IMG/VR virus record: IMGVR_UViG_3300021478_000004
Coordinates: 1 to 60,503 of that record
Source: a virus
Taxonomy: Duplodnaviria > Caudoviricetes
Direction: 5' to 3' (one strand)
Length of the DNA: 60,503 nt
Shown: positions 4,053 through 52,794 of the stretch, one piece after another
Numbering within the stretch: position 1 is the stretch's first letter
Layout of the letters: each line of letters begins with the position of its first letter
The notes under the pieces: model-generated
Told to the model about the DNA's origin: nothing
The model's database searches: none
What the model saw: the letters and a program-made list of their open reading frames with translations, nothing else
Translations under genes and position numbers: made by a program

Positions 4053-4453
4053 TAGAAGCTATCCGTGCGAAGCGGCTCTCCTGTCGGACGGCCCCGCAGC
4101 ATCACCTTGAGGCTCTGCGCAGCCGCGCCAGCCCCGACCGGAACCTGGCCCCAACCGCCGAGACCGCGATTGATGTATTCTCCTGCCTCTTCCCCGCTCG
4201 AGCCCATGGCTCTCGCGCACTCGCCAGCAACGATCAGCACGAGGTCGCTAAACCATTCGCCCGGGATGTTGTTAGGATCGGCGACATAAACGATTTCGTT
4301 CCCCGCCAGCTTACGAAGGATCGAATCCAGCTTGTTGTTGACGGTCGAGAAGTCCTCTGGCGATATGGGCTGGCCTGGACTGAGAACGCCAAGCTCTTCA
4401 AGCGCTCCGAGAACGAGGTCGCTCGACGTGCGGAACGGGTTGTAAGCCGCCAC
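4052..4453 (-). CDS. Head-to-tail adaptor (P22 gp4-like)
   Basis: T..DLVLGALEELGVL..G...SPED N-terminus; position. Confidence 0.7.
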   Translation of the reverse strand: MAAYNPFRTSSDLVLGALEELGVLSPGQPISPEDFSTVNNKLDSILRKLAGNEIVYVADPNNIPGEWFSDLVLIVAGECARAMGSSGEEAGEYINRGLGGWGQVPVGAGAAAQSLKVMLRGRPTGEPLRTDSF

Positions 4454-4461
4454 GGCTCAGA

Positions 4462-5019
4462 TCACTTCGCGCGCCACGGAAGGTCCAGGACCCCATACTT
4501 CACCCAGACCCGGGAGACGTCCATATCGGTCATCCCCTGCTTCATTCGGAGATCGCGAAGCACCGGCTCGGCCATCGTCCCCAGCCATTTTACGTCGTCT
4601 TCTCCGACCTCGCATGTCTGTCGCAGCACGCGATCATCCGCCCAATGCTTGATCAATCCCTCGACGCTGTCGCACGTCTTGAGCCAGGCGACGACGTGCG
4701 CGCGATACTCCATCGCCGTCTTCGGGCCGTCGTTCGGATTGTGATCGGCCGGCTTGCTCGGATCGCCCTTGCCGACGCGGAAAAAGCGGTTCGTGCGCGC
4801 GGCTTCGATGTGCGCCGCGTTCGTGATCCGCTGCGTGACGCCGGCATGGAACTCGACCCCGCGCCATGTGGTTTTGGGAGGATCGCCGGGGCCGGGCAAA
4901 TAAGTGATGTCCTCGCCGTCATCCTTCGCGGGTTCCGGCTTGGGCGGGGCGACCGTATGGGCTTGCACAGGGCGCGGCGGATCGGCAGGCGCAGGCGGTT
5001 TGTTTTTGTCATCGGCCAT
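4462..5019 (-). CDS. Hypothetical protein
   Basis: 185-aa ORF in the late operon with RBS. Confidence 0.7.
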   Translation of the reverse strand: MADDKNKPPAPADPPRPVQAHTVAPPKPEPAKDDGEDITYLPGPGDPPKTTWRGVEFHAGVTQRITNAAHIEAARTNRFFRVGKGDPSKPADHNPNDGPKTAMEYRAHVVAWLKTCDSVEGLIKHWADDRVLRQTCEVGEDDVKWLGTMAEPVLRDLRMKQGMTDMDVSRVWVKYGVLDLPWRAK

Positions 5020-5341
5020 TGTGGCTATCCTTGATCGTTTTCATAAAATCAGTCTCGATCACACGCCCGGTTCTGCGCTCGTATTCGGAAACTTGGTCCG
5101 CCAGTAGCAGCGCCAAGTCCTTGAACGATCCGATACTCATGGCCAAGACCGCAACAGTCTCTTGCGGCATGAACGGCGCAAGATCGCCGTTTTGCAGTTT
5201 GCTTGGCCGCAACTGGTTGGCCAGCAAGACCGCGTCATTGCTGGTACAAGATAACTGGAACCCTGACACATGAAACCTAGGAGCCTCAATCGGAATCGCC
5301 GTTACTATCGCCCCTTGCGGTAGCTTAGGTTCAAATCTCAT
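5009..5341 (-). CDS. Hypothetical protein (DUF3467-like)
   Basis: GAAGGAGAG RBS before MRFEPK; C-terminal MSIGSFKDLALLLADQVSEYERRTG pattern. Confidence 0.55.
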   Translation of the reverse strand: MRFEPKLPQGAIVTAIPIEAPRFHVSGFQLSCTSNDAVLLANQLRPSKLQNGDLAPFMPQETVAVLAMSIGSFKDLALLLADQVSEYERRTGRVIETDFMKTIKDSHNGR

Positions 5342-5351
5342 GCACTCTCCT

Positions 5352-5876
5352 TCACTGATCGTTGTTCTTAGCGAACGTGATAACGATCGTGCAAATGCCA
5401 GTCGTGGCCGCAGTCCCGGTCTGCGTATATTTGACGAAAATAGGGACCGAGCCATTTATCGCCGTCTGAAAGGTCGGGCTGTTGGTGACTTGCATCCCCA
5501 GCCCCGCCGCAGTCGTAAGGTGATAGATTCCCGGAGTTCCCGCGGTGATGCCCGACGCCACGATTTCGTTGGCGCTCGCCGCCGTTGCGCCTACCGTGAT
5601 GACGTTGGTCGTAGCCGCGTTGAACGCTGTGACGACCTGCGCATCGATCGTGAGAATGAAGGCGTTCTTGGGCAGCGTCGCGTACCAGACGCCGGTCGCG
5701 ATACGCGGGTCGTTGAAGTTGATCGTGACGCGAGAGTAGCATACCTGCTGCGACAATTCGCAGGTGCGCTCCGGGATGATCTTGTTCGGATCGGTGACGA
5801 GGGCGGACGCGGGGACGAAGGCGAAGCAGGCGAGGAGGAGAACCGCGAGGGCGGACTTGATGAGTTTCGAAAACAT
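5352..5876 (-). CDS. Capsid cement/decoration-like protein carrying an N-terminal signal peptide
   Basis: Directly after MCP; LPKNAFIL...VVTAFNAATTNVITVG...KYTQTGTAATTG pattern; leader MFSKLIKSALAVLLLACFAFVPASA. Confidence 0.7.
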   Translation of the reverse strand: MFSKLIKSALAVLLLACFAFVPASALVTDPNKIIPERTCELSQQVCYSRVTINFNDPRIATGVWYATLPKNAFILTIDAQVVTAFNAATTNVITVGATAASANEIVASGITAGTPGIYHLTTAAGLGMQVTNSPTFQTAINGSVPIFVKYTQTGTAATTGICTIVITFAKNNDQ

Positions 5877-5900
5877 GGCGGGGATTCCTGTGTGCGAGAT

Positions 5901-5930
5901 GGAAGAAGCCGCCCCTTGATTGGGACGGCT
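5901..5930 (-). terminator. Probable intrinsic terminator/attenuator after the major capsid gene
   Basis: AGCCGTCCC-AATCAA-GGGGCGGCT hairpin followed by TCTTCC. Confidence 0.55.
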
Positions 5931-5941
5931 AGATTTTTCGA

Positions 5942-7105
5942 TCAATCCTTTACGGCGGCCTCGAACATCGTGAAGATGCCCCATTCCTTGAAGTTGCCAG
6001 CCGCATTCAGCTTCGCCAGCTTTCCAAGCCCGTAGCACATCTCAACGCCAGTGCCGCGGACGAACCCGTAGTCGTCTTCCTTGCGGAAGGTAGCCATCGG
6101 CATCTTGCCCCAGCACCAGGCTTGCGCCTGCTGGCCGCAGAGGAACGCGGGCGCTACCTGGGTTGTCGCGGCGGCTCCGGCGGTCGCGTAAAAGGTCGGC
6201 AACCGGAGCGACAATTCCGGGATTTCCCGGATGATCACGCCGTTGTAGAGCAAGTCGCCGTCGACGAAGATCGGGTTCTTGAGATAGCCCTGATTTTCGC
6301 GGGCGCGCGAGTTCTGGTTCGCGGTTTTGATATCCGTGTCGTTCTGAGCGTCACGGAACTGCTCTTGCCCGACGAATAGCACGAACCATTCCGTGCCGTT
6401 TTCCTTCAGCTTGTACGGCCGGATACGCGGATTCGCCAGCTTGGCCGCCCGCTTGGCCCTCATGATCAGGGCTCCTGACATCGTCATCGCCGTCGTGATA
6501 TTCGTCATCGAGGCGGCGAAGTTGCCAGCCGACAGGTTCGCGGCGTTGGACGATCCGATCAGGATGCGGTCGGCGTTGTCGGTGATCCATGTGTTGCGCT
6601 GCGCCGCCGTGGCCGCGTCGAACAGGATGCCGTTGACGCGCTGGCCGTTGGCGCTTCCTAGGCCGGCAGGCGCGGATTGCGAGGGCAGAGCGTAGAACGA
6701 GTCGCAAATCTCGTCGCGCTGTAGTTCCTTGCCCCAATCCACCAGCATCGGCTTGGCTTCGGCGAACAAGTCGATCGAGGATTTGTTCTCCTCGGGCTTG
6801 TTGATTACGACCGCGTTTCGAGCCCAATCGACGTAAAGACGCTGCCCGTAGTTGTCGAGGGCCTCTTCGTTGCCGACCAGAGGGCCGCTAGCGATGGCTT
6901 GAGCATTGAGCCTGGCCATCAGCGGGACGTTGATCTGTTCGCCGCCGTTCTTGCCGCCCTTGTCGAGGTCGGGAATTACGCGAATGATCGTGTTGATGTC
7001 CGTGCCCATGTAGGGGGAGAACAGATTCTCGCGGACATATTCTCGGAAGATCTGCTTCCGGAATTCTATGAGTTTGTTGTTGGCCTGTGTGGCTGTGAAA
7101 GCCAT
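5942..7105 (-). CDS. Major capsid protein (DUF4043/N4-gp56-like)
   Basis: LVGNEEALD, NPIF..G.LLYNGVIIRE, FLCGQQA, EDDYG motifs; downstream of scaffold. Confidence 0.9.
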   Translation of the reverse strand: MAFTATQANNKLIEFRKQIFREYVRENLFSPYMGTDINTIIRVIPDLDKGGKNGGEQINVPLMARLNAQAIASGPLVGNEEALDNYGQRLYVDWARNAVVINKPEENKSSIDLFAEAKPMLVDWGKELQRDEICDSFYALPSQSAPAGLGSANGQRVNGILFDAATAAQRNTWITDNADRILIGSSNAANLSAGNFAASMTNITTAMTMSGALIMRAKRAAKLANPRIRPYKLKENGTEWFVLFVGQEQFRDAQNDTDIKTANQNSRARENQGYLKNPIFVDGDLLYNGVIIREIPELSLRLPTFYATAGAAATTQVAPAFLCGQQAQAWCWGKMPMATFRKEDDYGFVRGTGVEMCYGLGKLAKLNAAGNFKEWGIFTMFEAAVKD

Positions 7106-7161
7106 AGTCGCGCGTCCTTATTCTTGGCCGCGCAAGCGTCGTCGAGACGTAGCGCGGTATT

Positions 7162-8208
7162 TTAAGTGAAAGCGCCGTCGAAGACCGCTCGATCCGATCC
7201 GTCGAGTATTCCGGGATCGATCGGCGCGCGGATGTTGCCGCCGGACGCCCGATTGAGCGACGCGGGCAGGCGGGTTTGAGTTCGCGGGGTTCCGTCATCG
7301 CCCGCCATCGCGTCGGCGCGCATTTCGGCCACGAGTTTTTTCCTGAACTCGGGATCGTTCATGAGCGCCGTGCGCGCGTCTTCGGCGATCCTCGCCTTGT
7401 AGGCGGCCGGATCGTCGCCGACCTCGCGAAGCGTTTCCGTTCGCTTGTGCCAAGCGACGACAGCCTCTCCGGGGTTCAGAGATGAGGTCATTCGCTCGGC
7501 CAGCGCGCGGCCATCCGAGCTGCTTTGGGCGGCGCTCTGCAAAGCTGTGAAGGCTTTGACGAACGTATCGCCGTGGCGATCCTTGGCCATTTGCATGCTC
7601 GCGTTGATGCGCATTTCCTCCATTCGCTGGTCTCGCGCCTGGAGCCGAGCTTCCACCCTCTTGTCGATATAGTCCGAGTACGCTTGCGGACTTTCGTACA
7701 TGTCAGGGGGTGCATCTGGCTTGATCTCGGCTGGCTTTGGCTGCTCGGCGGGCCTTTGCTGCTGACGAAGCGCCGTCAGGAACTCGGCGCGAAGGGCGTC
7801 GATCTTCCTTTGGCTCTCGGCTTCTGCGGCTTCGAGGCGCGCCTTCAGCGCGTTGCGTTCGGTCTCAAAGGCGAGCGTCCGCTCTCGGAGGATGCGAGAG
7901 GGCACACGTCCCTTCGAATCCTCTTCGACATCTGGCTCTGGCTTGGTTTCCGGTTTGGCTTCCGGCTTGGGCTCGGCTTTCGCTTCAACCTTTTCAGGTT
8001 CGCCCTCGCCTTCCTCGCCTTCCTCGTCCGCCTCGTCCTCGTCCTCATCGGGCTCATGCTGACCTTCTAGCCCGTCACCCATCGCTTCGCGCGATCGATC
8101 TCCGGTTTCGTCGAGCGTCAGTTCTTCCTTGCCCCACGCGTCGCCGAAGATTTCCTTGTTAGTCCCGATAATCGCATCCCGAAGGATGTCCTGTTCCGTG
8201 TCCGCCAT
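7162..8208 (-). CDS. Capsid scaffolding protein
   Basis: Acidic N-terminus, RVPSRILRER, coiled coil, PDMYESP; lies between portal and MCP. Confidence 0.8.
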   Translation of the reverse strand: MADTEQDILRDAIIGTNKEIFGDAWGKEELTLDETGDRSREAMGDGLEGQHEPDEDEDEADEEGEEGEGEPEKVEAKAEPKPEAKPETKPEPDVEEDSKGRVPSRILRERTLAFETERNALKARLEAAEAESQRKIDALRAEFLTALRQQQRPAEQPKPAEIKPDAPPDMYESPQAYSDYIDKRVEARLQARDQRMEEMRINASMQMAKDRHGDTFVKAFTALQSAAQSSSDGRALAERMTSSLNPGEAVVAWHKRTETLREVGDDPAAYKARIAEDARTALMNDPEFRKKLVAEMRADAMAGDDGTPRTQTRLPASLNRASGGNIRAPIDPGILDGSDRAVFDGAFT

Positions 8209-8328: not shown

Positions 8329-10308
8329 CTATGCAGGCCGCTGTTGGCCCTGTTGCTGCCCCTGCGGTTGCGCTGGGGGCTGAAACAACTGTAGCGCCTC
8401 GGTCCACATGCGGTGCTGCAATTCAGCCGCGTCAAGCTGCGTCTGCGTCTCGTGCGCGTTGACCTGATGTTGCAGCCCCGCGGCATCGAGATGCACCTTC
8501 GCGCCCGCGACATGGGCATCGTGGATCGTCTTCTGGGCCATCGCGTCGGCTCGGCGTGCCTCGGCCGCGGTCTTGGCGTTCCTTACCGCTTCGCCTTCGA
8601 GAGCGAGCTTCTTTGCCATCTCCTTCGCTGGGTCGGCCTGCGGCGGCTTCGGCGAAAGCATCTGCAAAATCATGTTCTTGCGCTCGCGCGGCATCGGCGA
8701 GAGTTCGATCAAGACCTGGGGCGGGAATGTGCCGGGCGGATATCCCTTTAACGTGTCGTACGCGTCCTGCATGACGGTCTCGACGTCCGGCCCCTCTTCA
8801 AGGACGATGTTCACGTCGAGTGCGCCCAGAAGATTGACCATCGCTGGTCGCCCCCATTGGTCCTCTCCAAGTGCGTTCAACCAAATTCCTGCCTTTACTG
8901 GGTCGTTGTCGTTGATGATTGGCAACCACCGCTCTTTCGTCCATGACCGTTGTGCGGTCGTCCAAATGTCTCGATAGAGTTGTAGCTTCCATTGCCGATA
9001 CGCGAGTACGAACGGACCCAACTCGGCCATGCCGGGCTGGCGCAGCAGTTCCAACGCGCGCCCGGAAATGTTGGCCAGCGACGCGCCCTGAAGCACGGCA
9101 ATATTGGTTCCTGCGAAACTGTCGATTTCCTGACCAGCCTGTTCAGACATCCCATGGAATGCGGCGAGGTCCGTTGTCTTGTCGTCGGGCTCCCACTTTC
9201 TCCCCGGATTTACTTCGATAATTCCGTCCGGGCGAGCCTGCTCGATGCGAGCCTGCTCGACGTTGTCGACCGCGCCCTTCTCGGTAATCACTCGTCGGGT
9301 GTTCGCAAGATGCAATTCCTTGGACTTTGACTGATTGAACGAATCCTGCGGGCCTTTGAGTGCCCGGGCGAACCCGTAGCGATCCCCCTGTTGGTCGACC
9401 GCTGCCGAGAACATATTGAACGACGAAGCGCTATTTCCATCTTTATCGAAAAACGGAGAAATACCCTCGTCTAGCAAGACTGATGAAACGTAGAACGCCC
9501 AGCACCATTTGCCCTTCCGCTTATACCAGTGCTCTATGAGACGAAGGCTCTGGGTCGACGTCACGACCCACTTGTATTCTCGGTCGGCGTTGGTCGTGAG
9601 GTCCGAATCGCCCTGGATAAGGCCTCTGAGCACGTCCTCCTTATGGGGGAAAAGCTCGATTGCCTCCTCGACGTCTAGCCATTTCGACAAGCCCTCGTAG
9701 CGCCGATCATTGAAGTCGAGGCGGTAGGACCGAGGGTCATAGAAATATTCGTCTCCGATGACCCAATTGAGTTTGATGTCGTTTTCGCCGTTTTTCCCAG
9801 GCACCAGCGTACGCTGGACGCCGGCCACGCCGTCGATGCAGCACTGCAAAAGGCACCATGGATCTATGCCTTTCCAGTCGTTGCCGTCGAGAACCGAGCG
9901 GATGACCTGGGTAGCGATATCAGCCCCGGCTTGGCTTCGCACCGAGGTCGGCAAGGCTTTAGGGTCTGACCGAAGCCGCTCCACAAGGCCGACGATGCCA
10001 TTGATCTTACGATTCACCCGGGGCCAAGTGAGCACCGCCTGATGACGTCGTTTCAGGGTTTCAATCTGCTTCCCGTCCCACTGTATGCAATGGTAGTAGC
10101 AACGCGCAATCTTCTGTTCTTCGATCTCTTCGGATTTCGACCAGAGATAGTCTAGGTATTGCGTGCGCAGCTTACGCACGTCTAGGAACTGATCCTTCTC
10201 GTCGTCGTCCGTCTCGCTCACGGACGCGATCTTGTCGCGCTGTTGTGGGTCGCGAACTAGGCCCGTCAGCCGGGATCGGTCCCGAGATAGAAGCTCAGCT
10301 ACGGGCAT
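8329..10308 (-). CDS. Portal protein (P22 gp1-like)
   Basis: 659 aa; YYH..QW, INGIVGLVER, YFYDPRS, RYG..RAL..PQD..N...SK, SGRA; C-terminal helical barrel region. Confidence 0.9.
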   Translation of the reverse strand: MPVAELLSRDRSRLTGLVRDPQQRDKIASVSETDDDEKDQFLDVRKLRTQYLDYLWSKSEEIEEQKIARCYYHCIQWDGKQIETLKRRHQAVLTWPRVNRKINGIVGLVERLRSDPKALPTSVRSQAGADIATQVIRSVLDGNDWKGIDPWCLLQCCIDGVAGVQRTLVPGKNGENDIKLNWVIGDEYFYDPRSYRLDFNDRRYEGLSKWLDVEEAIELFPHKEDVLRGLIQGDSDLTTNADREYKWVVTSTQSLRLIEHWYKRKGKWCWAFYVSSVLLDEGISPFFDKDGNSASSFNMFSAAVDQQGDRYGFARALKGPQDSFNQSKSKELHLANTRRVITEKGAVDNVEQARIEQARPDGIIEVNPGRKWEPDDKTTDLAAFHGMSEQAGQEIDSFAGTNIAVLQGASLANISGRALELLRQPGMAELGPFVLAYRQWKLQLYRDIWTTAQRSWTKERWLPIINDNDPVKAGIWLNALGEDQWGRPAMVNLLGALDVNIVLEEGPDVETVMQDAYDTLKGYPPGTFPPQVLIELSPMPRERKNMILQMLSPKPPQADPAKEMAKKLALEGEAVRNAKTAAEARRADAMAQKTIHDAHVAGAKVHLDAAGLQHQVNAHETQTQLDAAELQHRMWTEALQLFQPPAQPQGQQQGQQRPA

Positions 10309-10596: not shown

Positions 10597-10821
10597 TCAG
10601 CCCTCCCTCTTGATAGAGTGCAATTCCCCGCGAGGCTTGCCCTGGATGGTTTCTCGCAGAGCGGTGAGCATTGCTATCCCCTCGACGCGTAACGATCGGT
10701 CCTCGATCAATTCAACTCTGCAAATTAGTTGCGTATATGCGCGAACACGCTCCGCAATCGGATCACGCTGCGGAGGTTCGTAGTTGATGATTTCCTTGTC
10801 GGTCGTCACCGCTACGCCCAC
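10597..10821 (-). CDS. Hypothetical protein
   Basis: Fills the gap in the operon. Confidence 0.55.
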   Translation of the reverse strand: MGVAVTTDKEIINYEPPQRDPIAERVRAYTQLICRVELIEDRSLRVEGIAMLTALRETIQGKPRGELHSIKREG

Positions 10822-12167
10822 CCTTGCTTCTCAGCCAACCGCTCGAACGCTCGCTTAGAGATCACGCCGCTCTTCACCATGTCCTCTGCCTTCGCCTGCT
10901 CTTTCGACACCGGCGCATCTCCGGACGCCCCGAGCGTCTCCTTCAAGTCCGCCAGCGCCGTTTCTAGCGCGTCAGGATTGCTCTTGATCTCCAAGGCATG
11001 CACCGTCTTGGCAATTTCCGTCACCTTGCCGATGGCTTCCTTCGCGGTATCGCCGTAAGCGACGACCGCGCCGAGGAACGGCATCTTGTTGGCCTGCGGA
11101 ATGACGTACTTGCTGCCTTCGTGCTCAGTGAAATACCTGAGCTTGACGTTCTCGTCGTACTCTTTCGGGTATGTCACCTTGACCCACGATTCCGCTAGCT
11201 CCTCGCTCGTCAAGATCAGTTCCGCGCCCCACTTGCCGGAGAATTCCGGCTCTATCAAAACGCCCTCGGCTCCGTACCAGACGATATCTCCTAGGTTGGT
11301 CATCATGATCTGATAGAGTTCGCCCGGAGGCGAAGGCATGCGGCAGCACGGGTCTATGAGATAATCGTGGCCGTCTTCGGTGCTTCTAATTTCGGCCGAA
11401 AGAAAGCCGCGGTAGTTGTATTTCTTGAGTTGCGGCGAGAGCTTGGCGTTGATACTGCTGACCGCCGCGGGAATCTTGCTGTATTTTACCACCTTGGCGA
11501 CGAGCGCCGTATCCTTGGCCTCTACGCCGACGAGGCAATAATCGGTAAATTGGCCGTCGATCGTATAGCCGTCATAGGCCAACTCGATCGCCGGGCCGGT
11601 GTTGTCCTCGACGATGAACTCCATCAAGTCGGCCTTAGGCCCTAGCTTATAGTCGATCTCGTCGAGCTTGCCCTCAACCGCCTCGAAAGTCGGCGCATGG
11701 AATGTCTCCATGTCTCCGCGCGTCCGGCTGATCTTCACGTACTGATCGTCGTTCGCCTTGAGATACCGGCGAAGCTTCTCGATCCCCATCATGGTTTTGT
11801 AGGGGCCGACTTCGATGCCGAGCCGCGTGCTGATTTCCTTCGACTTCGCGCGATCTATTTCTAGTTCGCAGCCGCCGCGACAACCCCATACGCGCTTGCC
11901 GAGGCTGACGAGGTACTTCTGAACGTCGCCCTCGTAGACGTCGGGAAAAACAAATATGTCGACCTCGTCGAGCCGCGTCCATGGGCTGTCGACGCTTTCG
12001 ATTTCCGGCACGCCCATCGCGATCATCTGCAATTGCGACGTTGGAAAGCCGGTCACCCACGGACAGTAGTACAGGACTTTGCCGAACTGCTTGGATAGGG
12101 TGACAGCGAGGGAGACGAAGAGGCCGTTGTCCCAGACCAGCGCCGTCTTGCTTTTCAGGTCCGTCAA
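10812..12167 (-). CDS. ATP-grasp amide ligase, PurD/GAR-synthetase-like (451 aa, TTG start)
   Basis: VWG...CELEIDRAKSKE..RLGI...Y...YVKIS...ETF, FIVED, YRGFLSAE, YLIDPCCR.PSP, GAVVAYGDT.KEAI; TTG overlaps the upstream TGA. Confidence 0.75.
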   Translation of the reverse strand: MTDLKSKTALVWDNGLFVSLAVTLSKQFGKVLYYCPWVTGFPTSQLQMIAMGVPEIESVDSPWTRLDEVDIFVFPDVYEGDVQKYLVSLGKRVWGCRGGCELEIDRAKSKEISTRLGIEVGPYKTMMGIEKLRRYLKANDDQYVKISRTRGDMETFHAPTFEAVEGKLDEIDYKLGPKADLMEFIVEDNTGPAIELAYDGYTIDGQFTDYCLVGVEAKDTALVAKVVKYSKIPAAVSSINAKLSPQLKKYNYRGFLSAEIRSTEDGHDYLIDPCCRMPSPPGELYQIMMTNLGDIVWYGAEGVLIEPEFSGKWGAELILTSEELAESWVKVTYPKEYDENVKLRYFTEHEGSKYVIPQANKMPFLGAVVAYGDTAKEAIGKVTEIAKTVHALEIKSNPDALETALADLKETLGASGDAPVSKEQAKAEDMVKSGVISKRAFERLAEKQGWA

Positions 12168-12580
12168 GATTCCCCCGATCGATATTCCAACCCGTTTACA
12201 GCCGCCTCGTAAGCGTCCCAACTCACTCCTAGCACCATCGCCGCAAACCGCTCGACAAGCGTCGCGAGATGATGTCCCTCGCGATACGGGGCCTTCGGAT
12301 CGTCCCCCGGCTCGCTAAAATCCCCGGGCTTGCGGTTCTTCTCGTAATCCATGTCGAACGCATCCACGTCGGCTTGCTTCACGCCGCGACGCTTGCACCA
12401 CGCGAGTTCGAGCATCTCATGGAACGCGACCAAGAACTGATAGCGCCAGTCGCCGAGTTCAGAGACCCGGATGTGCCAGCCTTCCTCATCCGTCCACCAA
12501 TCTCCGACCGTGTCGTAGCGCTGGCTGTTGTGGGGGATGGTCTTGATCTCGATCATGCCGTCGAAGAGTGACTCTCGCAT
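12164..12580 (-). CDS. Putative zincin-like metalloprotein
   Basis: IPH..QRY.TVGD, LVAFHEMLE (HExxE), distal EPGDDP.APY...H..A..VE. Confidence 0.55.
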   Translation of the reverse strand: MRESLFDGMIEIKTIPHNSQRYDTVGDWWTDEEGWHIRVSELGDWRYQFLVAFHEMLELAWCKRRGVKQADVDAFDMDYEKNRKPGDFSEPGDDPKAPYREGHHLATLVERFAAMVLGVSWDAYEAAVNGLEYRSGES

Positions 12581-35935: not shown

Positions 35936-36223
35936 ATGAAAGGGATCATCAGCATGAGTGGAGAAATGATAGAACGCGTCGCGAAGGCCATTATCGACAC
36001 AATGTTCGAGGAGCACGAACTACCGCTTGAAGACGCAATTTACGAGAAGTATCTGGTAACGGCTGATGCTGGAATGTCGGCGCTTCACCAGCCTACCGAG
36101 GCAATGCTTGACGCCGCGCGCGACTGGTCGGCGAAGAAATACGGGGTAGGCATCGGGAATAAGGATGCAATCGGCTGCTGGCAAGCCATGCTCGCCGCCG
36201 CGCGCGGGAACCCGCCGACATGA
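35936..36223 (+). CDS. Hypothetical protein
   Basis: MIERVAKAI...PTEAM..A...WQAM..AA pattern common in alphaproteobacterial phages. Confidence 0.7.
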   Translation: MKGIISMSGEMIERVAKAIIDTMFEEHELPLEDAIYEKYLVTADAGMSALHQPTEAMLDAARDWSAKKYGVGIGNKDAIGCWQAMLAAARGNPPT

Positions 36224-36432
36224 AAACAACTCCGCCCGCCCCACCGTCCCAACGGGATAGCCGAGATGGAACTTATGGCTCTGCTAGTAATAATCCTGCC
36301 GCTGTTGGTGTGGGCTATTTTGCAAACTCAAATCAATTCTCTCGAAAAACGCATAATGGAACTCGAGAAGACCAGCTACCGCCTGAGCCTGCCCAAGGGC
36401 GCGGGCGGGGCGGCCTGATGAAAGGAACCGAC

Positions 36433-36930
36433 ATGCTAAAATTAATCATAGCCGCTGCCATACTGGCGATGGCGTCTCCGGCTTGGGCAGACGATGGCGG
36501 CGTTCCCCCGCTCATGTGCGGAGAAAAACCCTGTCTAATTGAATGCGGTGACGCTCATTGCTGGCGTTCTGGTGGTATCCCTACGGAAAGTCCGCAAGTC
36601 GATCGCTCCTGGCATCTCCTGACCCAGAGCGAAGGCGGAACGGTCTCGCTGCTGAAAGACTTGACCAAGCACGAATGCGAGTTCGCTATGCACCGAGCGA
36701 AAGGCGAGCCGGCAACTGATCAGGAAGTGCAAAAGGCGATTCAGGACAAAATAGACGAAGAAGCCCTCCTAGCACAGGCGAGGGAATTCTGCGCTAATCC
36801 AGAAACACCTGAGCCTAGGCGACAAAAGAATTGTTACCAAGGCGTGCCATTGTTTTACTTCATGAACCATAACCATGGCGGCAACTCGACTCAGCCCGGG
36901 GACATCAGGTCAGCGGAGTGCTTCCAATGA
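36433..36930 (+). CDS. Secreted Cys-rich protein
   Basis: AAAGGA RBS; MLKLIIAAAILAMASPAWA| leader; 8 Cys. Confidence 0.7.
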   Translation: MLKLIIAAAILAMASPAWADDGGVPPLMCGEKPCLIECGDAHCWRSGGIPTESPQVDRSWHLLTQSEGGTVSLLKDLTKHECEFAMHRAKGEPATDQEVQKAIQDKIDEEALLAQAREFCANPETPEPRRQKNCYQGVPLFYFMNHNHGGNSTQPGDIRSAECFQ

Positions 36931-36979
36931 AAGCCATCGTTGTGTGCGCCCTACTGGCGATGGCGTCTCCGGCTTGGGC
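36461..36979 (+). repeat. 28-bp direct repeat (36461-36488, 36952-36979) encoding LAMASPAWA
   Basis: TACTGGCGATGGCGTCTCCGGCTTGGGC occurs twice. Confidence 0.9.
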
Positions 36980-37562
36980 TGTCGACTGCGAGACGGGTTA
37001 TCTTTGGCGACCGGGGGATGGATGCGTCAAGAGCGATGCGGGCGGCGTTGGGATGGATTCCGCATGGTGCTCGGCCGATAATGCTCATTGGTTTCCCCCA
37101 CGCGATGACGGACTATGCCACGCAGAGGACGTCCCCACTACTTCCGGGCGATGGGTCGATATCCCGACCACCACTATCTGGCCTGATAGGCACGGAGGCG
37201 GCTGGCCTGACATGCGCGGCGGAGGCGCTGGGGGTGTTGGTGGTGGCCCATTCCAGAGAGTCATCGAAGACGCCCCAGGCTTAACCGGAGGCGGCGTAGG
37301 AACGCAGGCCGATTGTGGTTCAGGCTGGATTCTCATGAGCGACCATCCCCACTTGTGCTGGAAGGATGGCCTAGTGAAGAGATTTCCCCCAGGCTCGGTA
37401 TGGAGTGATAAATGCTCGGGTGACGGATGCGTGGGTGTTGGACATGGAACTATAGAATGGTCAAATCCAGTAGCGCCAATCTGCCCCGCCGGCGACGCCC
37501 TTCTTGCCTATCCCGGAACATGGACGCTTGTCTGCGCGCGAGATTTGCAGATTCCGAAATGA
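36927..37562 (+). CDS. Secreted Cys/Gly/Trp-rich protein
   Basis: MKAIVVCALLAMASPAWA| leader; 10 Cys in the mature part, in apparent pairs. Confidence 0.7.
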   Translation: MKAIVVCALLAMASPAWAVDCETGYLWRPGDGCVKSDAGGVGMDSAWCSADNAHWFPPRDDGLCHAEDVPTTSGRWVDIPTTTIWPDRHGGGWPDMRGGGAGGVGGGPFQRVIEDAPGLTGGGVGTQADCGSGWILMSDHPHLCWKDGLVKRFPPGSVWSDKCSGDGCVGVGHGTIEWSNPVAPICPAGDALLAYPGTWTLVCARDLQIPK

Positions 37563-37696
37563 GTGACTCTTGCGGACTAGTTCACGCCTTCGAATGGCAA
37601 CAATCCATATCATTAATAATTTGCTGTAACTTTGTCGCGACGGCGATGGTCATCATCATATTAACTCGGAGACGGAAGCGGGCGGGATAGGAGAGG

Positions 37697-37888
37697 GTGA
37701 AAATGAAGCTGGCAATTATTATCGCCTGTACACTGGCATCGGGGGCTTTCGCTGGTATCGCCGTGGTCATCGGCGTTAGCACCACAAAATCTAACCCACT
37801 TCTGGCAATCCCGTTCGCTTTCGTGTTCATGGTGGGATTAGCGGGGTCGGCTTGGCTTTTTTCGCCCGATGGACCGTTGGCTCGATGA
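37697..37888 (+). CDS. Small two-TM membrane protein
   Basis: AGGAG RBS; two hydrophobic helices. Confidence 0.55.
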   Translation: MKMKLAIIIACTLASGAFAGIAVVIGVSTTKSNPLLAIPFAFVFMVGLAGSAWLFSPDGPLAR

Positions 37889-37910
37889 TGCGACGGGAGA
37901 GGAGATAGCG

Positions 37911-38093
37911 ATGGAAAGCCAGGAATATCGCGATGGGATTGACGCCTTTAGCGCGGGGAAGCCGATTGAAGCCAACCCTTATGAGAACTACGAATGGAGC
38001 GGTTCTTACAACGATTGGAACCGCGGATGGCGAGACGCCAAAGAACAAGCCTCAGACGACCAGGATACTCGGGAAGGGCGCTATATTTCCTAA
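37911..38093 (+). CDS. RMF-like small protein
   Basis: GAGGAG RBS; Y.DG..AF..G....NPY.......W..GW. Confidence 0.55.
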   Translation: MESQEYRDGIDAFSAGKPIEANPYENYEWSGSYNDWNRGWRDAKEQASDDQDTREGRYIS

Positions 38094-38135
38094 CCTCCCC
38101 GCCACGCCTGCCAATGCGCCGCATGGGAGAGAGCG

Positions 38136-38249
38136 ATGGATCGATTGACTGACCGTCAGCTTAGATTGCTGCTAGTCGCGGCGATATGCCTCTGCATAGC
38201 CTGCATTACCGCGATGCTGGGTCCGCTGCCGAAGTTAGTACTGCCCTAA
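38136..38249 (+). CDS. 37-aa hydrophobic peptide
   Basis: GGGAG RBS; MDRLTDRQLRLLLVAAICLCIACITAMLGPLPKLVLP. Confidence 0.45.
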   Translation: MDRLTDRQLRLLLVAAICLCIACITAMLGPLPKLVLP

Positions 38250-38341
38250 CCCCGCACCGCCCACCACATCGCCGCCGCGAACAACAGCGTGCCCGTAATC
38301 GCTATGATCGCGGCGATGTGCGGAGAAGGGTGGGGGGTCAT
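38246..38341 (-). CDS. 31-aa hydrophobic peptide
   Basis: ATGA-coupled to the upstream gene; MTPHPSPHIAAIIAITGTLLFAAAMWWAVRG. Confidence 0.45.
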   Translation of the reverse strand: MTPHPSPHIAAIIAITGTLLFAAAMWWAVRG

Positions 38342-39201
38342 ACCTGACGAGTGTCGTTGTTAGGATGATAATAATTATTCGCTATATGTCCTCGTTGAAA
38401 GAACCCTATTATCGCAATGATGCCTGCACCAGTCGCGATGATGCCAAATATCCACGTTACCGTCTGATCTGTTCCTCCTTTATTACCTTCTATCCGATCC
38501 AACCGAGACTTAGTGTCTATGAGTTGTGCTTGCATCGAAGCGATCGTGTTCTGTGAGATAGCCAGCGGACCTTCAGACTTGTCTAGCCGAGATTTCAAAT
38601 CGGTAATCTGCGCCGTTTGCGCCGATATTTCAGATGACGCCAGCGTCCGTAGCTGTGCAAGCTGTTCTGTGGTCTGTGTCTGTGCTTTTTCGATTGCACT
38701 GGCGCTGCTCTTGTTCTGTTCGCCCACCGCCTCCTTCGCAGCTTGGAGGGCCGCCGCGATAGCGGTTGAGCTCGCCGCGGTTCGCTCTTGGAATTGTATC
38801 GCGAGGACGGAGAGCTTACCGCTCACTTCCTCGAGTTTTCCGCTCAACTCCTCTCGTTTTGTGGCCGCCTCCGATGAGATGACGGCGAGCTTGCTATCGA
38901 ATAGCGCTTGCACCCCATTGATGGCGCGGTCGACAATCGTCGGCACCCGAACCGAGTCTTCATGCGCAAGCTGGATCGCCTTTTCGATCGCGTCAAACCG
39001 GACGCCGTTCTGCAGGAGAACCGATGCAATCGCCCGATCCACGTCCAAGCGAGAAACTTTGTCGGTGTCGTTGGAATACTGATTGAACTGCGGTTGCGTG
39101 CTCGGCGGCGTGACCTTCCCGATAACAGGCGGATTGACATCCTGCGCCCACGCGCTGCCGGAGAGCACGACGATACATGCGGCGAAGACAAGCGCTCTCA
39201 T
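38338..39201 (-). CDS. Signal peptide, long coiled coil and C-terminal TM protein
   Basis: MRALVFAACIVVLSGSAWA|Q; heptads; WIFGIIATGAGIIAIIGFF. Confidence 0.75.
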   Translation of the reverse strand: MRALVFAACIVVLSGSAWAQDVNPPVIGKVTPPSTQPQFNQYSNDTDKVSRLDVDRAIASVLLQNGVRFDAIEKAIQLAHEDSVRVPTIVDRAINGVQALFDSKLAVISSEAATKREELSGKLEEVSGKLSVLAIQFQERTAASSTAIAAALQAAKEAVGEQNKSSASAIEKAQTQTTEQLAQLRTLASSEISAQTAQITDLKSRLDKSEGPLAISQNTIASMQAQLIDTKSRLDRIEGNKGGTDQTVTWIFGIIATGAGIIAIIGFFQRGHIANNYYHPNNDTRQV

Positions 39202-39587
39202 ATCGAAGGCAACCTACAGCCTCGGACGAACGCGACGATCTGCTTCGATGCGTCCTCGGTAATGATGCCAGAAAACGTGACGTGGCCGTACTGAGTGACC
39301 GTGATCGTCGTCTGGAACACCTGGATCGTCAGCCCTCCGCCCATTAGAGCCTTTCCGTCCTTCCTCGCTCGACTATCGTCGAGGTGATGCTCGTGACCGT
39401 CAATCCATGCGATGACCGTTAGCGGATGCGCCCGGTCCTGGTCCAATGTCACTTGATGGGATTCCGACGCATTGCTAACCGAGAACGTGACCGGCATCGG
39501 CATGTGGTGGCGACCTCGCAAGGCGATGGCGTCTGTTAGGCACGCGACCACGACCAGGATGCACGCGGCGAGGACGAGCGGCTTCAT
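39198..39587 (-). CDS. Secreted hypothetical protein
   Basis: MKPLVLAACILVVVACLTDAIA leader. Confidence 0.6.
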   Translation of the reverse strand: MKPLVLAACILVVVACLTDAIALRGRHHMPMPVTFSVSNASESHQVTLDQDRAHPLTVIAWIDGHEHHLDDSRARKDGKALMGGGLTIQVFQTTITVTQYGHVTFSGIITEDASKQIVAFVRGCRLPSI

Positions 39588-39596
39588 GCGGCTAGG

Positions 39597-39944
39597 TCAC
39601 GCCGCGAGGTCTGGCAGCCCACAGGCCTTGATGAAGGCCGCTAGCGCCGCGGATTGACTGGCAGGAACCGTACCTGCGTAGTGGACACCGGCTTGGGAAA
39701 TATCCAGCGCCACCGCATGATTGACTACATCGACGGTCAGGTTGACCTTGTCGCCCTTCCACACCCATATATCCACGAGGCCGCTGAGCGCATCGCCCGC
39801 GCCGTTAGCGGTGCACTCGTAGACGACATGTGGGCGGCCATCGACAGACGAATTGATCGTGCGCTTGTTGTTCGCGTCCTGCTTCACGACAATCCTATGT
39901 GTGCCAGCAGGAGATGTAACGTTGAGGATAACTTGGTTTGACAT
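39597..39944 (-). CDS. Hypothetical protein
   Basis: AAAGGA RBS; C-terminal FI..C.LP shared with 39198..39587. Confidence 0.6.
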   Translation of the reverse strand: MSNQVILNVTSPAGTHRIVVKQDANNKRTINSSVDGRPHVVYECTANGAGDALSGLVDIWVWKGDKVNLTVDVVNHAVALDISQAGVHYAGTVPASQSAALAAFIKACGLPDLAA

Positions 39945-40253
39945 GGAGAGGTTTCCTTTGGGTTGATGGATTATACTTACCGCGTAGAACCGATGGTCCG
40001 TGACGCCTTCGCCTCAAGCATGCGGACGCGCATCTCCAGCGCGTCGATCATCCTCACCAGGGTCGGAACCCAGACGCGTGCGTCCGACACGTCGCTGACC
40101 AAAACGCCGCAGGCATCTGCGGACGGGTCGGCGGAGCGCTGGTCCCGCACGCGGTCGCGCTCCTGGTAATCGGATGTCATAGTCGGGGCTCCCACTACTG
40201 CTATGCTCGCTCGCGTCTATTCGGTGTCTCACGAGGCGGGGGAGCCCCTTCTC

Positions 40254-40583
40254 TCAGTTCGGTGTGGGCGTAGGTGTCGGCTTAGGCGTCACGGTTGCTG
40301 CCTGCACGACCGTCCATACCTGCAACAGCGTTGCGAACGCCGAAGCTATGTCGGTCGGTGGATTGGCGCAGATCGCCTTGCCTTCCGCCTCGGCGGTGGC
40401 CACGGCTGCAGTCGGCGTCCCGACGATCATCGCGAAATAGCTCTCAGCCTTGTCGACGATGGCGCAGGCGGTCGGGATATCGTTTTTTGCCAATGTGGCG
40501 AGCGTATTGTTGATTGCGGTCACTGGCTGGCACCCCGCGAGTAGCGGGAGAGCGAGGCAAGCGGCGAGGGCGTATTTTTTCAT
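40254..40583 (-). CDS. Lipoprotein (possible spanin component)
   Basis: MKKYALAACLALPLLAG|C lipobox; near the lysis genes. Confidence 0.7.
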   Translation of the reverse strand: MKKYALAACLALPLLAGCQPVTAINNTLATLAKNDIPTACAIVDKAESYFAMIVGTPTAAVATAEAEGKAICANPPTDIASAFATLLQVWTVVQAATVTPKPTPTPTPN

Positions 40584-40804
40584 GTGAGGCTTCCTTTTGT
40601 CGGGCGTCGTGCCCCTAGCGTTCTGGATTATCTGGAGCAGTAAAAAGCGTAGGCCCACCAATCAATTCCACGGACCATATTTCTACTCCCAAAGACCCAA
40701 CCTCGATATTTGTCGGCCATAGGAGTATTGCTGCCGCCTTGGCTTCGTCTAAGCTATTCGCTTCAACAATAACGGTATAGAATTGTTGCTTGCGTAGCGT
40801 ACAT

Positions 40805-41017
40805 TCATATGTGGTCATGATACGTGGTCCCACGTGCGCGCCGATCGATCTCGGCGTTGATGTGACTAATAGCGACGTCAAACATTGTGGCGGCGGCGTA
40901 GTCGTGATGCTCCCGCGACCACGCGCGGAGCTTTATGCAATCGGCGAGGACGAGCGCGAGCAGTTGGCAACTCATCGACGCGGCAGTCTGGTCGAGAAGA
41001 TGAGCAAAATCTCTCAA
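40805..41017 (-). CDS. Hypothetical protein
   Basis: Coupled ORF. Confidence 0.4.
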   Translation of the reverse strand: MRDFAHLLDQTAASMSCQLLALVLADCIKLRAWSREHHDYAAATMFDVAISHINAEIDRRARGTTYHDHI

Positions 41018-41178
41018 AGCCGACCCATCAGGAGCAGGACAACGAGGATGATCAGGATCACGCCGACGATCCCGATCCCGCCGTGGCCCATGCCATAGCC
41101 GTAAGGAATGCCGATTCCGCCGCCGCCGATCCCTCCAAACAGAATCAGAACAAGGATGACGATTAGGATCAGCATCAT
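41014..41178 (-). CDS. DUF3309-like small membrane protein
   Basis: AGGAG RBS; ILIVILVLILFGG...YGYG..GGIG.V..IL..L.L.GRL. Confidence 0.7.
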   Translation of the reverse strand: MMLILIVILVLILFGGIGGGGIGIPYGYGMGHGGIGIVGVILIILVVLLLMGRL

Positions 41179-41191
41179 TGGCTCATATCTC

Positions 41192-41521
41192 CTAGTACGA
41201 CAGCGGGATAAAGAAGCAGCGGACGTCGCCGATCTTAGGCGGCGCGTCATGTTCCTGCCAAACAGTAACTCCGAAGAGCCAGTAATCGCCGTCCTGGCTC
41301 GGGTCCGTCTGTGAAAGCGGGATCACGCCATCGTGGCCGTCGACCAGATATCCGCCGTCAACGCGATGGACTTGCTCGGGCTTTAGGTGGTGGACGTCGT
41401 TTATACCACAACATCTCTGTGCGACCCACGCGGGAACCGGTTCCCCGTTGGCCCAGAATTTATGCGCAAAGGCACTTGAACAATTTAGAATAAGGATCGC
41501 AGCGACCATCATGTTGCGCAT
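41192..41521 (-). CDS. Secreted Cys-containing protein
   Basis: Leader ...SSAFA|H; CC..D, S.DG.YW, CFF.P. Confidence 0.7.
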   Translation of the reverse strand: MRNMMVAAILILNCSSAFAHKFWANGEPVPAWVAQRCCGINDVHHLKPEQVHRVDGGYLVDGHDGVIPLSQTDPSQDGDYWLFGVTVWQEHDAPPKIGDVRCFFIPLSY

Positions 41522-42129
41522 CGTCGTGCCTTTCCATTCACAATCCTGCAAACGTGGCTCGGAGATATCCCGTATTCGGATGCCAATCCTCTAATGGTCT
41601 TGCCGCCGCGGGAATGAGCGGCAATCACAGATGACATCACTTCATCGGAAAATCTTACCGCTCCGTAATAATTTGCCGTTCCATGAAGTATCTTGTCTTG
41701 TTCGTTCTCTACGGGCGTCGCCCAGCGGAGATGGCGGGGATTGACACACTTTCTGTTGCCGCACGAATGGGCGCTTTGATGTTGTTCAGTCGGGGCCAGC
41801 CCGTATGTTCTTTCGCATACAATGTGATTGGCCGTGCTTGTTGATCTGTTTCTGCTCCAAACTCCATATCCCTTGTCGCCGAGTGCGAAAGGCCACGGCA
41901 AGCATTCATCGGAATCGTGCGCTAGGATCGTTTTTGTCCAAAACTCCTCGATCGGACCTTCGCCAATGCGACATGTCGTCTTTCGCCCCAGACGAAACCG
42001 CTCATAGTGAGCGTGACACATCATTCTAGCGTAAAACGGTCTTTGGCAGTCGCCTACCGTGCAATGCTCGGGCGGCGATCTATTAGGCTTGCTAACGCGC
42101 GCGATTTCGGGCTTGCTCTGAGCAGCCAT
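41509..42129 (-). CDS. HNH homing endonuclease (paralogous to 26312..26896)
   Basis: C....C...CHAHY, C.PWP, AHSCGNRKCVNP.HLRWAT..EN..D...HGT. Confidence 0.85.
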   Translation of the reverse strand: MAAQSKPEIARVSKPNRSPPEHCTVGDCQRPFYARMMCHAHYERFRLGRKTTCRIGEGPIEEFWTKTILAHDSDECLPWPFALGDKGYGVWSRNRSTSTANHIVCERTYGLAPTEQHQSAHSCGNRKCVNPRHLRWATPVENEQDKILHGTANYYGAVRFSDEVMSSVIAAHSRGGKTIRGLASEYGISPSHVCRIVNGKARRCAT

Positions 42130-42251
42130 GACGGTCTCCAATCCAGATCGTTGTGGTTAGCGCCGTCGAACGTGTTGCAAGCACTTCGGCGGCGCGCCTT
42201 TCAGCGAAGTAACAATACGAGAATCGACCAACGTTTGCAAGGGATTCCGCC

Positions 42252-42596
42252 TCATCGCCCTCGCGAAGTTGACGGCACGCCAGGATCGGGCGTGAACACG
42301 ATCTGCACCGCGACTGCTGCGGGAATGCCGGCCTTGGCGCTGACGGCCACCGCGGCAACCTGAATGGTTTTATTTGCATAGAAACTATTCGCGATGTCTG
42401 ACATGATCGCCACGGCGGCCGTTATGTCGAGCAGCGGATTCGTCCCCTCGGCAAGCGCTGCGGCCAAAACCTGCTGAAATGGAAATGCGTCGAGAAACTG
42501 AAGGAACTCGTTGGCTGGCTTCGTTTGGCCCGACGCAGGTTTGATGCCGGCTATGATCGCCTGGAGGTATTGGCCGATCGTCGAGAGGATCGTCAT
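42252..42596 (-). CDS. Hypothetical protein in the lysis cassette
   Basis: ATGA-coupled to the holin. Confidence 0.6.
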   Translation of the reverse strand: MTILSTIGQYLQAIIAGIKPASGQTKPANEFLQFLDAFPFQQVLAAALAEGTNPLLDITAAVAIMSDIANSFYANKTIQVAAVAVSAKAGIPAAVAVQIVFTPDPGVPSTSRGR

Positions 42597-42889
42597 GCTG
42601 GTCCCTTTAACGGGTGATCGATTGCCGGAGTCATCGCCGTCGCCGGAACGACTTTGACCCCATTATTTGCGGTGTTGACGGCGGCAATCTGAGCGGTTGG
42701 CGTATGCGACCGCGTCTTGTACCAAGCCAAGCCTGCGGCTACGGCTCCGGCCCCTATCATGACAATGTCGTTCGCGAACGATGATTGATCGGCGGAAGGT
42801 ATCAGTCCTTTGCTGGCCGCCCATGCCGCAATGCCTGTCGCGGCATAGCCGGCAACCGTGGTCAAAATGCTCTTGAGTTGCGGGTCCAT
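42593..42889 (-). CDS. Putative holin (2 TM)
   Basis: Two hydrophobic helices; directly downstream of the endolysin. Confidence 0.7.
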   Translation of the reverse strand: MDPQLKSILTTVAGYAATGIAAWAASKGLIPSADQSSFANDIVMIGAGAVAAGLAWYKTRSHTPTAQIAAVNTANNGVKVVPATAMTPAIDHPLKGPA

Positions 42890-42977
42890 TCTCTTATCCC
42901 CTTCCCGGCCTGTTCCAGTGCGCCCGATCTAAGCCGGGATTGCTCACTTCTTCTCTGGAAGCGTGTAAGTCTCGCTG

Positions 42978-43433
42978 TCAGTCATATTGTTCAAGACCGT
43001 TGTGGTTGATCACCGCCATCAGCGCCGCGGGGTAGTTCGGAGCCGTGGCGTAGCCGCATGCGTGCAGGGCTTGGGCGTAGGCGTCGGGGGACTTGGCATC
43101 GATGCAACGCTGATAATGCGGGGACGTGAGAAGCGCGGCATGGGCGTCGAAAGCAGCTTCAAGGGAAGGGTAATTGGCGAACCATTGTTGCTCGGCGACG
43201 TAGCGATGACCGATATACTCGTGGGTCAGGACCAGCCGAGCTTGCCCTGACGCGCGCTGCGCCTGGGTTGCCTTTATGCCAAAAGGATTGTTCACCCCCG
43301 ACAAATGCGCGCCATAGCCTGATTCTACAGCCCACTGAGCGAGCGAGATGGACACGAACGGCCCGCGCGGTGAAAACTTGGCGTGGCTCGCGCGGGCGAT
43401 TGGGATGATGGGGAGAAAGCGGGAATCGGTCAT
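42978..43433 (-). CDS. Endolysin, glucosaminidase (GH73/FlgJ-like)
   Basis: LAQWAVESGYG, NNPFGIKA, T.EY, F..Y.S, GYATAPNY, L..YD. Confidence 0.9.
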   Translation of the reverse strand: MTDSRFLPIIPIARASHAKFSPRGPFVSISLAQWAVESGYGAHLSGVNNPFGIKATQAQRASGQARLVLTHEYIGHRYVAEQQWFANYPSLEAAFDAHAALLTSPHYQRCIDAKSPDAYAQALHACGYATAPNYPAALMAVINHNGLEQYD

Positions 43434-43648
43434 GGCTGTAGATTCCACCGCAGGATGTATGTCGTCTTGTCTTCGCGAACGCACTCATAATGCGGCAGCG
43501 TGCCGTTGCAGTCTCGCGCTGGCTCCTGCTCGCAAAATTCGCGCACAGTGTGAGCTGCAAGATCGGCCACCGGACGACAAATTGTCGGGCCGGGGAGGCA
43601 ACCCATCGCCGTCACCATCGTCGGAACGACCAGCGTGCAGATATCCAT
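43430..43648 (-). CDS. Small Cys-rich protein
   Basis: AAAGGA RBS; 6 Cys. Confidence 0.5.
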   Translation of the reverse strand: MDICTLVVPTMVTAMGCLPGPTICRPVADLAAHTVREFCEQEPARDCNGTLPHYECVREDKTTYILRWNLQP

Positions 43649-46605: not shown

Positions 46606-46622
46606 TTTTCCAGTTCTCCTAG

Positions 46623-52352: not shown

Positions 52353-52362
52353 GAACTCAGCC

Positions 52363-52767: not shown

Positions 52768-52794
52768 GTCTTGGATTCCTTCAGTCGGAGGCCC

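Follow-up and report, generated by a model that had tools for sequence, protein, structure and literature searches.

A predicted capsid cement protein with a Sec-type leader in a tailed phage and its environmental relatives

The gene after the capsid gene

We examined the virus record IMGVR_UViG_3300021478_000004 (hereafter the window), which is complete at 60,503 bp, carries direct terminal repeats and has an estimated completeness of 100%. At 5352-5876, directly after the gene for the major capsid protein (MCP), lies a single-copy gene whose product resembles phage capsid cement proteins and begins with a leader of the type that directs proteins to the Sec translocon and is cut by signal peptidase I (SPase I). 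A preliminary description, made from the sequence alone, had pointed to a 174-residue leader-bearing open reading frame (ORF) at this place. The ORF proved real; it lies on the minus strand and a 65-nt spacer separates it from the capsid gene. The plus-strand translation of 5352-5876 is meaningless and not a gene. The features at the center of the analysis are:

5352-5876, minus strand (read 5876 to 5352): predicted cement-protein precursor gene, 174 codons plus stop (translation, 443 homologues)
5802-5876, minus strand: leader, codons 1-25, Sec/SPase I type (direct reading and family statistics)
5745-5801, minus strand: predicted N-terminal arm of the mature protein, codons 26-44, extended (alignments; unstructured in models)
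5355-5744, minus strand: predicted beta-sandwich body, jelly-roll or Ig-like, codons 45-174 (AlphaFold2 model, Foldseek)
5877-5941, minus strand: spacer between capsid gene and cement gene, 65 nt, with a 9-bp G+C-rich hairpin and an AGGAA motif
5942-7105, minus strand: MCP gene, 387 aa (PF13252, E 1.4e-38; phrog_334, E 4.6e-73)

The ATG at 5876 is preceded at a distance of 7-8 nt by the AGGAA ribosome-binding motif, and the first residue of the precursor is also where the alignment of close homologues starts. After M1, the only canonical in-frame starts are TTG (L41), GTG (V106) and ATG (M128); around the predicted cut the codons read CTC and GTC. With no start codon near residue 26 the leader cannot be bypassed, and an internal start was ruled out; the earlier remark that no Met lies near the mature start was thus correct, and holds for GTG and TTG as well.

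Matches to the protein at E<=1e-3 numbered 443, all carrying the database name 'hypothetical protein', with relatives encoded on 386 viral contigs, and an exhaustive profile search returned 1534 representative clusters (50% identity) at the same threshold. Pfam held no family for it, and the ESM Atlas yielded only unnamed viral clusters. A match to an Rz-like spanin family (phrog_20969; E 0.0025, 18.9 bits, no stretch passing alone) was at chance level, and a spanin identity was also rejected on location, the gene being outside the lysis cassette (lysis genes at 42.6-43.5 kb).

Two further observations concern the same interval. A longer plus-strand ORF (5340-6035) overlaps the gene, as is frequent in G+C-rich DNA. 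The spacer hairpin has a minimum free energy of -19.7 kcal/mol (z -2.03), with 6 of 200 shuffled sequences folding equally well; it may attenuate or stabilize the transcript, and a terminator scan of 4300-7300 reported nothing on the minus strand and did not flag it.

Fold, synteny and modelled trimer

The full-length AlphaFold model (predicted local distance difference test, pLDDT, 75.7) comprised an N-terminal helix at residues 3-19, an unstructured arm and a beta-sandwich, bearing out the beta-rich pattern of the preliminary description, while a mature-only model built from a 68-sequence alignment reached pLDDT 89.0 and a predicted template modelling (TM) score of 0.85. When both were compared by Foldseek with the Protein Data Bank (PDB; 350,542 chains), the three best matches of each were phage cement proteins, at probability 1.00. 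Specifically, the mature model matched 7eel_H of Pam1 (E 1.7e-5, TM-scores 0.54/0.57), 8h89_J of GP4 (0.65/0.63 at a root-mean-square deviation of 4.0 A, the highest TM-score) and 7dn2_1 of KHP30 (0.51/0.59), with the 'trimeric cement protein' of KHP40 (7DOU; 0.48/0.56) just behind. Sequence identity in the matches to Pam1, GP4 and KHP30 was only 9-19%; the missing sequence similarity to solved members was not treated as disqualifying. In BFVD, 42 matches at E<=1e-3 were mostly small phage proteins, among them one BcepMigl 'virion associated protein'. The cement fold anticipated by the preliminary description was therefore recovered, through Pam1, GP4 and KHP30 and not through the BPP-1 Bbp16 and epsilon15 gp10 proteins that it had named, the genes of which adjoin the capsid gene.

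The neighbourhood of the gene follows that of phage Pam1. Its remaining head-module members are:

4462-5019, minus strand: adaptor-position gene, 185 aa (position only, as Pam1 adaptor)
7162-8208, minus strand: scaffold-position gene, 348 aa (position only, as Pam1 scaffolding protein; conserved in 41 of 80 loci)
8329-10308, minus strand: P22-like portal gene (PF16510, E 3.3e-70; phrog_156, E 2e-70)
10812-12221, minus strand (read 12221 to 10812): terminase-position gene (position)

The closest cultured relatives of the MCP were from the Pseudanabaena phages Pam1, Pan3 and Pam5 (30-31% identity; Pam1 31%), and the window order, terminase-portal-scaffold-capsid-X-adaptor, matches the Pam1 order TerS-TerL-portal-scaffold-MCP-cement-adaptor. 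Across 80 viral loci, kept from the 386 contigs with a cement relative, a capsid-gene match lay upstream of the homologue in 67, at a gap below 200 nt in 58 of these (median 74 nt), and a homologue of the adaptor-position gene lay 3' of it in 52. The position after the MCP gene persisted even where MCP identity fell to 22-29%. Neither the scaffold-position nor the adaptor-position gene matched a Pfam or PHROG family. A 110-aa ORF (5009-5341, minus strand) lies between the cement gene and the adaptor-position gene, its start 11 nt past the stop codon of the former; it has a strong AAGGAG ribosome-binding site and no family match, and occupies a region that varies in length among relatives; further downstream are an Hc3-like protein (phrog_578) and a 303-aa protein with an S74 chaperone domain.

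Three copies of residues 26-174 were modelled as a trimer with an ipSAE (interface score) of 0.92, whereas the best of three controls scored 0.00, and the runs agreed on at least 87% of contacts with partner pLDDT of at least 88. Of 30 proteins solved as same-chain pairs, 20 reached the mark used, compared with 1 of 23 solved as single chains. Because trimeric cement proteins are already solved, this pass may reflect likeness to them rather than proof. Arm residues 34-49 fall within the modelled interface. R37 of the arm is invariant in all 68 aligned members and D29 is near-invariant; the arm also holds C39, with C46 just beyond it (5739-5741), and core motifs are common to leader-bearing and leaderless members.

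Taken together, fold, synteny with Pam1 and the modelled trimer support the assignment of the product as a capsid cement protein of the Pam1/GP4/KHP30 type, with a beta-sandwich subunit of some 150 aa. According to the available part of PMC9698820, the cement proteins of GP4, KHP30 and Pam1 are trimers at three-fold and quasi-three-fold axes that share their topology with the BPP-1 and epsilon15 proteins, and the long N-terminal loop of the Pam1 protein passes under the neighbouring subunit to contact the E-loop of the MCP. By analogy, we propose that the window protein would use its N-terminal arm to clamp the HK97-fold shell at three-fold and quasi-three-fold junctions, the MCP being its presumed binding partner.

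These known proteins also differ from that of the window. Pam1 gp6 (7EEL chain H), the best Foldseek match, is likewise encoded right after an MCP gene (31% identical product) in the same gene order, but has 140 aa, lacks a leader, begins with its arm and belongs to a phage of a cyanobacterial host. Ralstonia phage GP4 gp1 (8H89 chain J) forms trimers on quasi-three-fold axes, as the modelled window trimer might, whereas residues 2-156 of its 157 are traced in the virion with nothing cleaved, the head is T=9 and the cement termini are not extended (PMC9698820, available part). The cement proteins of the Helicobacter phages KHP30 and KHP40 (7DN2, 7DOU) share the fold and are trimers, but come from a different phage group, and neither their PDB titles nor the available part of PMC9698820 mentions a leader.

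A separable leader

In the window, the leader consists of an n-region with two Lys, a 13-residue hydrophobic core and a c-region P-A-S-A, with a predicted cut after A25. Statistics were drawn from 139 parsed leaders of 143 distinct ones. Position -1 was Ala in 135 of 139 and position -3 was A, S, V, G or T in 136, the net charge of the n-region was at least +1 in 137, and the uncharged run had a median of 18 residues. By the -3,-1 rule of von Heijne, this pattern of n-region, core and A-x-A is the signature of a Sec/SPase I substrate. In a 38-sequence alignment, sequence and length of the leader varied freely while the properties of its h-region were kept. A lipoprotein reading of L-L-A-C17 was rejected, as most of the 38 aligned members lack C17 and the A-x-A site is conserved, and so was a Tat signal, the window n-region having no twin arginine. 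These features support a genuine, conserved and separable signal-peptide-like leader, as judged from sequence.

Five loci with MCPs 57-82% identical to that of the window encode leaderless forms (L038, L044, L046, L061, L077). Their proteins start M-[YL]-[LF]-D-P (M-Q-T-L-D-P in L077), in register with L26-V-T-D-P of the window, and their short upstream spacers and frames held neither a leader remnant nor room for one. On the MCP tree, 13 distant phages were all leaderless, while the near clade comprised 42 phages with a leader and 5 without, and these 5 were nested at two points of the tree; at least three changes are needed, consistent with a single gain and two losses. More broadly, a leader was present in 27 of the best 150 of the 1534 representative clusters, and in a weakly resolved FastTree reconstruction of 140 of these 150 the leader state changed at least 12 times, with at least four changes forced by well-supported branches. 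Further pairs of leader-bearing and leaderless forms were also in register (P0148/P0204, P0135/P0230, P0188/P0133, and the window with P0189). At the sequence level, leaders thus come and go on the cement family, and leader and body always meet where the cut is predicted, which is the pattern expected of a leader that is cleaved off and of an N-arm whose precise length is important. The preliminary description had proposed aligning homologs with and without the leader, and had named retention of the leader as a structural helix in the virion as a finding that would overturn its view; the in-register leaderless orthologues argue against such retention.

Named hosts of leader-bearing members were all diderm Hyphomicrobiales (Bradyrhizobium betae, Bradyrhizobium sp., Pseudolabrys and Rhizobiales metagenome-assembled genomes, MAGs). 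Among 35 loci in species-representative genomes, 2 had a leader, both in Hyphomicrobiales MAGs, 30 were leaderless and 3 remained unparsed. Counted among the leaderless ones were all 10 prophage copies in Firmicutes (within L108-L122; hosts Blautia, Lachnospiraceae, Oscillospiraceae, Ruminococcus and Eubacterium), several of them with a conserved Cys in the N-arm. Additionally, two relatives, P0134 (332 aa) and P0152 (731 aa), combine a leader, a cement domain with C-x6-C and a long C-terminal extension, and could be capsid decorations that carry an outward-facing domain.

Paired cysteines

Paired cysteines are a mark of proteins that fold in an oxidizing compartment. The C-x6-C pair of the preliminary description corresponds to C39 and C46, to which a third residue, C162, has to be added. 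Cysteines were counted in 175 distinct cores (143 leader-bearing, 32 leaderless): leader-bearing cores had 0, 2, 3 or 4 in 39, 82, 4 and 18 cases and never a single one, and leaderless cores had 0, 1 or 2 in 26, 4 and 2 cases. The pairs occupy at least five alternative combinations of positions (39-46, 79-164, 48-66, 79-110, and 109 with an insert residue), so that C-x6-C is one of several solutions and not a family-wide feature, and on the family tree the presence of a pair changes at least 12 times. Among representatives at 50% identity, the leader-bearing ones had 0, 1 or 2 Cys in 8, 3 and 15 of 26, and the leaderless ones 0, 1, 2 or 3 in 63, 39, 10 and 1 of 113; even versus odd counts among the Cys-holding representatives gave a Fisher p of 3.3e-6, a value inflated by relatedness.

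In the contact list of the modelled trimer, residues 78/80 of a chain share their neighbour contacts with residues 163/165 of that chain, which suggests that residues 79 and 164 are cross-strand neighbours. The modelled contacts of C39 and C46 lie near the three-fold axis, and links between subunits are possible there. The in-register leaderless orthologues and the excess of paired cysteines lend indirect support to export and cleavage of the cement precursor.

Other late genes

The preliminary description took the leader as support for export of outer virion parts in general. Three genes bear on this or on the lysis step considered below:

42593-42889: holin-like gene (below the Pfam cut-off)
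42978-43484: endolysin gene (PF01832)
55859-56851, minus strand: 'tail protein', 330 aa (phrog_8763, E 1.2e-33), leaderless in the window

The broader claim found some backing in the 'tail protein' family. A leader was present in all three full-length relatives seen (G001:8608-9777, G005:45505-46614 and L131), although not in the window protein, which starts at the predicted cleavage site of these three. In two of the three, a Cys pair takes the positions of a Gly and an Ala in the window protein. In sequence, the pattern mirrors that of the cement protein.

The large late ORFs were not identifiable as fibres. Seven consecutive minus-strand ORFs at 43659-54864 (685, 134, 748, 252, 842, 118 and 761 aa), flanked by the internal-virion-type genes on one side and the lysis cassette on the other, a place at which tailspikes or fibres would be expected, all have signal-peptide-like leaders; several continue with Gly-rich linkers, and the large ones hold 8-16 Cys. 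Pfam held no family for the large ORFs, a tblastn search of cultured phages with three of them gave no match, and ESM Atlas leads were of low confidence. The sole PHROG matches, to 'tail fiber' phrog_38233 and the unnamed phrog_21413, cover a 70-residue stretch of the 761-aa protein. Relatives with a leaderless cement protein still encode large leader-bearing late proteins.

Elsewhere in the window, more small ORFs with signal-like leaders lie at 36220-41551, including one with a lipobox L-L-A-G-C (40254-40583) and two adjacent plus-strand ORFs (36220-37562) with a common c-region S-P-A-W-A. An HNH endonuclease gene (41509-42141, minus strand; phrog_59, E 3.4e-21; PF13392) lies just downstream of the lysis genes. 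Finally, the minus-strand genes at 58551-60497 and 56851-58551 encode proteins of 648 and 566 aa. The former has an SLT lytic transglycosylase domain and is probably an ejection protein or an internal component of the virion; the latter matches a PHROG labelled 'major head protein' (E 4.9e-17), the real capsid gene being elsewhere.

Discussion

The reading that we favour, with a probability of roughly 55%, is that the gene encodes an exported, often disulfide-stapled cement trimer that is added to heads at or after lysis. In this scheme the cement protein of a phage clade would have acquired a cleavable Sec signal peptide. The precursor would be made late, together with the capsid protein, exported across the inner membrane, cut by SPase I after A25 and folded in the oxidizing periplasm, where a C39/C46 disulfide, or other Cys pairs in relatives, could form. 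The trimer would then assemble and wait in the periplasm while DNA-filled heads are built in the cytoplasm without cement, until holin and endolysin (42593-43484) open the envelope, heads meet cement and the shell is decorated. Export, cleavage, disulfides, presence in the virion and the timing of decoration are all steps that we infer.

Known systems offer partial parallels. The pVIII and pIII proteins of filamentous Ff phages are virion proteins with Sec signal peptides cut by signal peptidase; unlike the window phage, which is tailed, of lytic type and has an HK97-fold head, Ff phages assemble at the membrane and are extruded without lysis. The decoration proteins gpD of lambda, Dec of phage L and Soc/Hoc of T4 bind expanded heads after assembly and do so in vitro on finished heads, so that decoration after packaging is mechanistically possible; to our knowledge these are cytoplasmic and have no signal peptide. 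Their tulip, OB and beta-tadpole folds also differ from that of the window protein (PMC9698820, available part).

Several points weigh against an exported cement trimer joined at lysis. With regard to identity, TM-scores to solved cement proteins were moderate (0.5-0.65), BPP-1 and epsilon15 cement proteins were absent from both Foldseek lists, and sequence similarity to the Pam1 cement protein was not significant (hhalign E 0.54 and 0.099). A PDB profile search returned no solved cement protein, its sole match being to the signal-peptide end of PmoB (E 0.033), and tblastn against 50,697 cultured-phage records, with the window protein and a distant leaderless member as queries, found no relative. 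Leader scoring was rule-based and not by a trained predictor, and close relatives manage without a leader, so export is not essential to the job of the protein. Disulfides are evidently not required either, given the 39 of 143 leader-bearing cores without Cys and the 2 leaderless cores with two; the mature window protein itself has an odd number (C39, C46, C162). Phylogenetically independent contrasts of leader and Cys numbered only 2-3 (sign test p 0.5-1), and the proximity of paired Cys is read from strand register and the trimer contact list only. Dilution at lysis would moreover work against efficient decoration of the many sites of a head, about 420 at T=7.

These points leave room for other explanations, of which the most serious, though unlikely in our view, is that the exported protein serves mainly or additionally in the envelope, in superinfection exclusion, receptor masking or lysis timing, with heads left undecorated or decorated incidentally. 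Export would place the protein where heads do not reach before lysis, the same phage has many other signal-bearing late proteins of unknown role, and close relatives with MCPs about 80% identical use a cytoplasmic form, so that the two forms differ biologically; the weak spanin match would also fit, were it not at chance level. Such a role would cost the head its cement, the gene being single-copy, and it sits poorly with R37, core motifs and a modelled trimer interface that are unchanged across leader-bearing and leaderless members, and with a gene that stays inside the head module, far from the lysis cassette.

We regard it as rather improbable that the hydrophobic segment gives no productive export during infection, with Sec saturated or the membrane de-energized, and that the protein acts from the cytoplasmic side, its leader serving as a membrane tether or assembly delay or being cut by another protease. 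Cys-free leader-bearing cores exist, and the gene outlived at least two losses of its leader. Yet the positive n-region, long hydrophobic core and near-invariant A-x-A form the Sec/SPase I signature, and, given the positive charge at the N-terminus, even an uncleaved protein would have its body on the periplasmic side; an excess of paired Cys at several alternative positions is hard to explain for a cytoplasmic protein, and leaderless forms begin exactly at the predicted cleavage site. Lastly, an unrelated secreted 'moron' whose only link to the capsid gene is its position behind it would accord with the lack of a Pfam family and of any informative database name, but it is already disfavoured and most improbable given a position kept at MCP identities of 22-29%, a fold and trimer that match cement proteins, and a family that is mostly leaderless.

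An exported cement trimer thus remains our preferred reading. Extending it, we tentatively suggest, at odds somewhat short of even, that a clade of Hyphomicrobiales podophages finishes its virions outside the cytoplasm, with cement and probably some tail or fibre proteins, whose homologues likewise gain and lose leaders, exported by Sec, stapled by disulfides through the oxidation machinery of the host periplasm and joined to DNA-filled particles only at lysis, and with cement leaders repeatedly gained and lost.

Virions of tailed phages are generally taken to be completed in the cytoplasm, a view in which any signal peptide encoded in a late region is assigned to a lysis protein or an accessory 'moron'. 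The cement protein is of a recognizable kind; what is new is its export signal, the repeated gain and loss of that signal, and the extracytoplasmic step it implies. No tailed phage whose cement or decoration protein is described as carrying a signal peptide came up in a literature search judged mostly from abstract openings and not covering the first paper on the Pam1 structure; PMC12633290 and PMC3765740, in the parts available, deal with lysis proteins.

Hundreds of environmental phages, as well as prophages of Bradyrhizobium relatives, encode leader-bearing cement proteins. For those who annotate such genomes, signal-bearing ORFs in structural modules should not be discarded as non-structural. 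The natural pairs of leader-bearing and leaderless forms in near-identical capsid backgrounds make the idea directly testable, and it suggests a route to display periplasm-folded, disulfide-containing proteins on capsids. If the reading is true, a core head-module protein would undergo an assembly step in the periplasm or after contact with it, export would give the phage disulfide bonds for a tougher shell, and the repeated gain and loss of the leader would make export a tunable trait of virion assembly.

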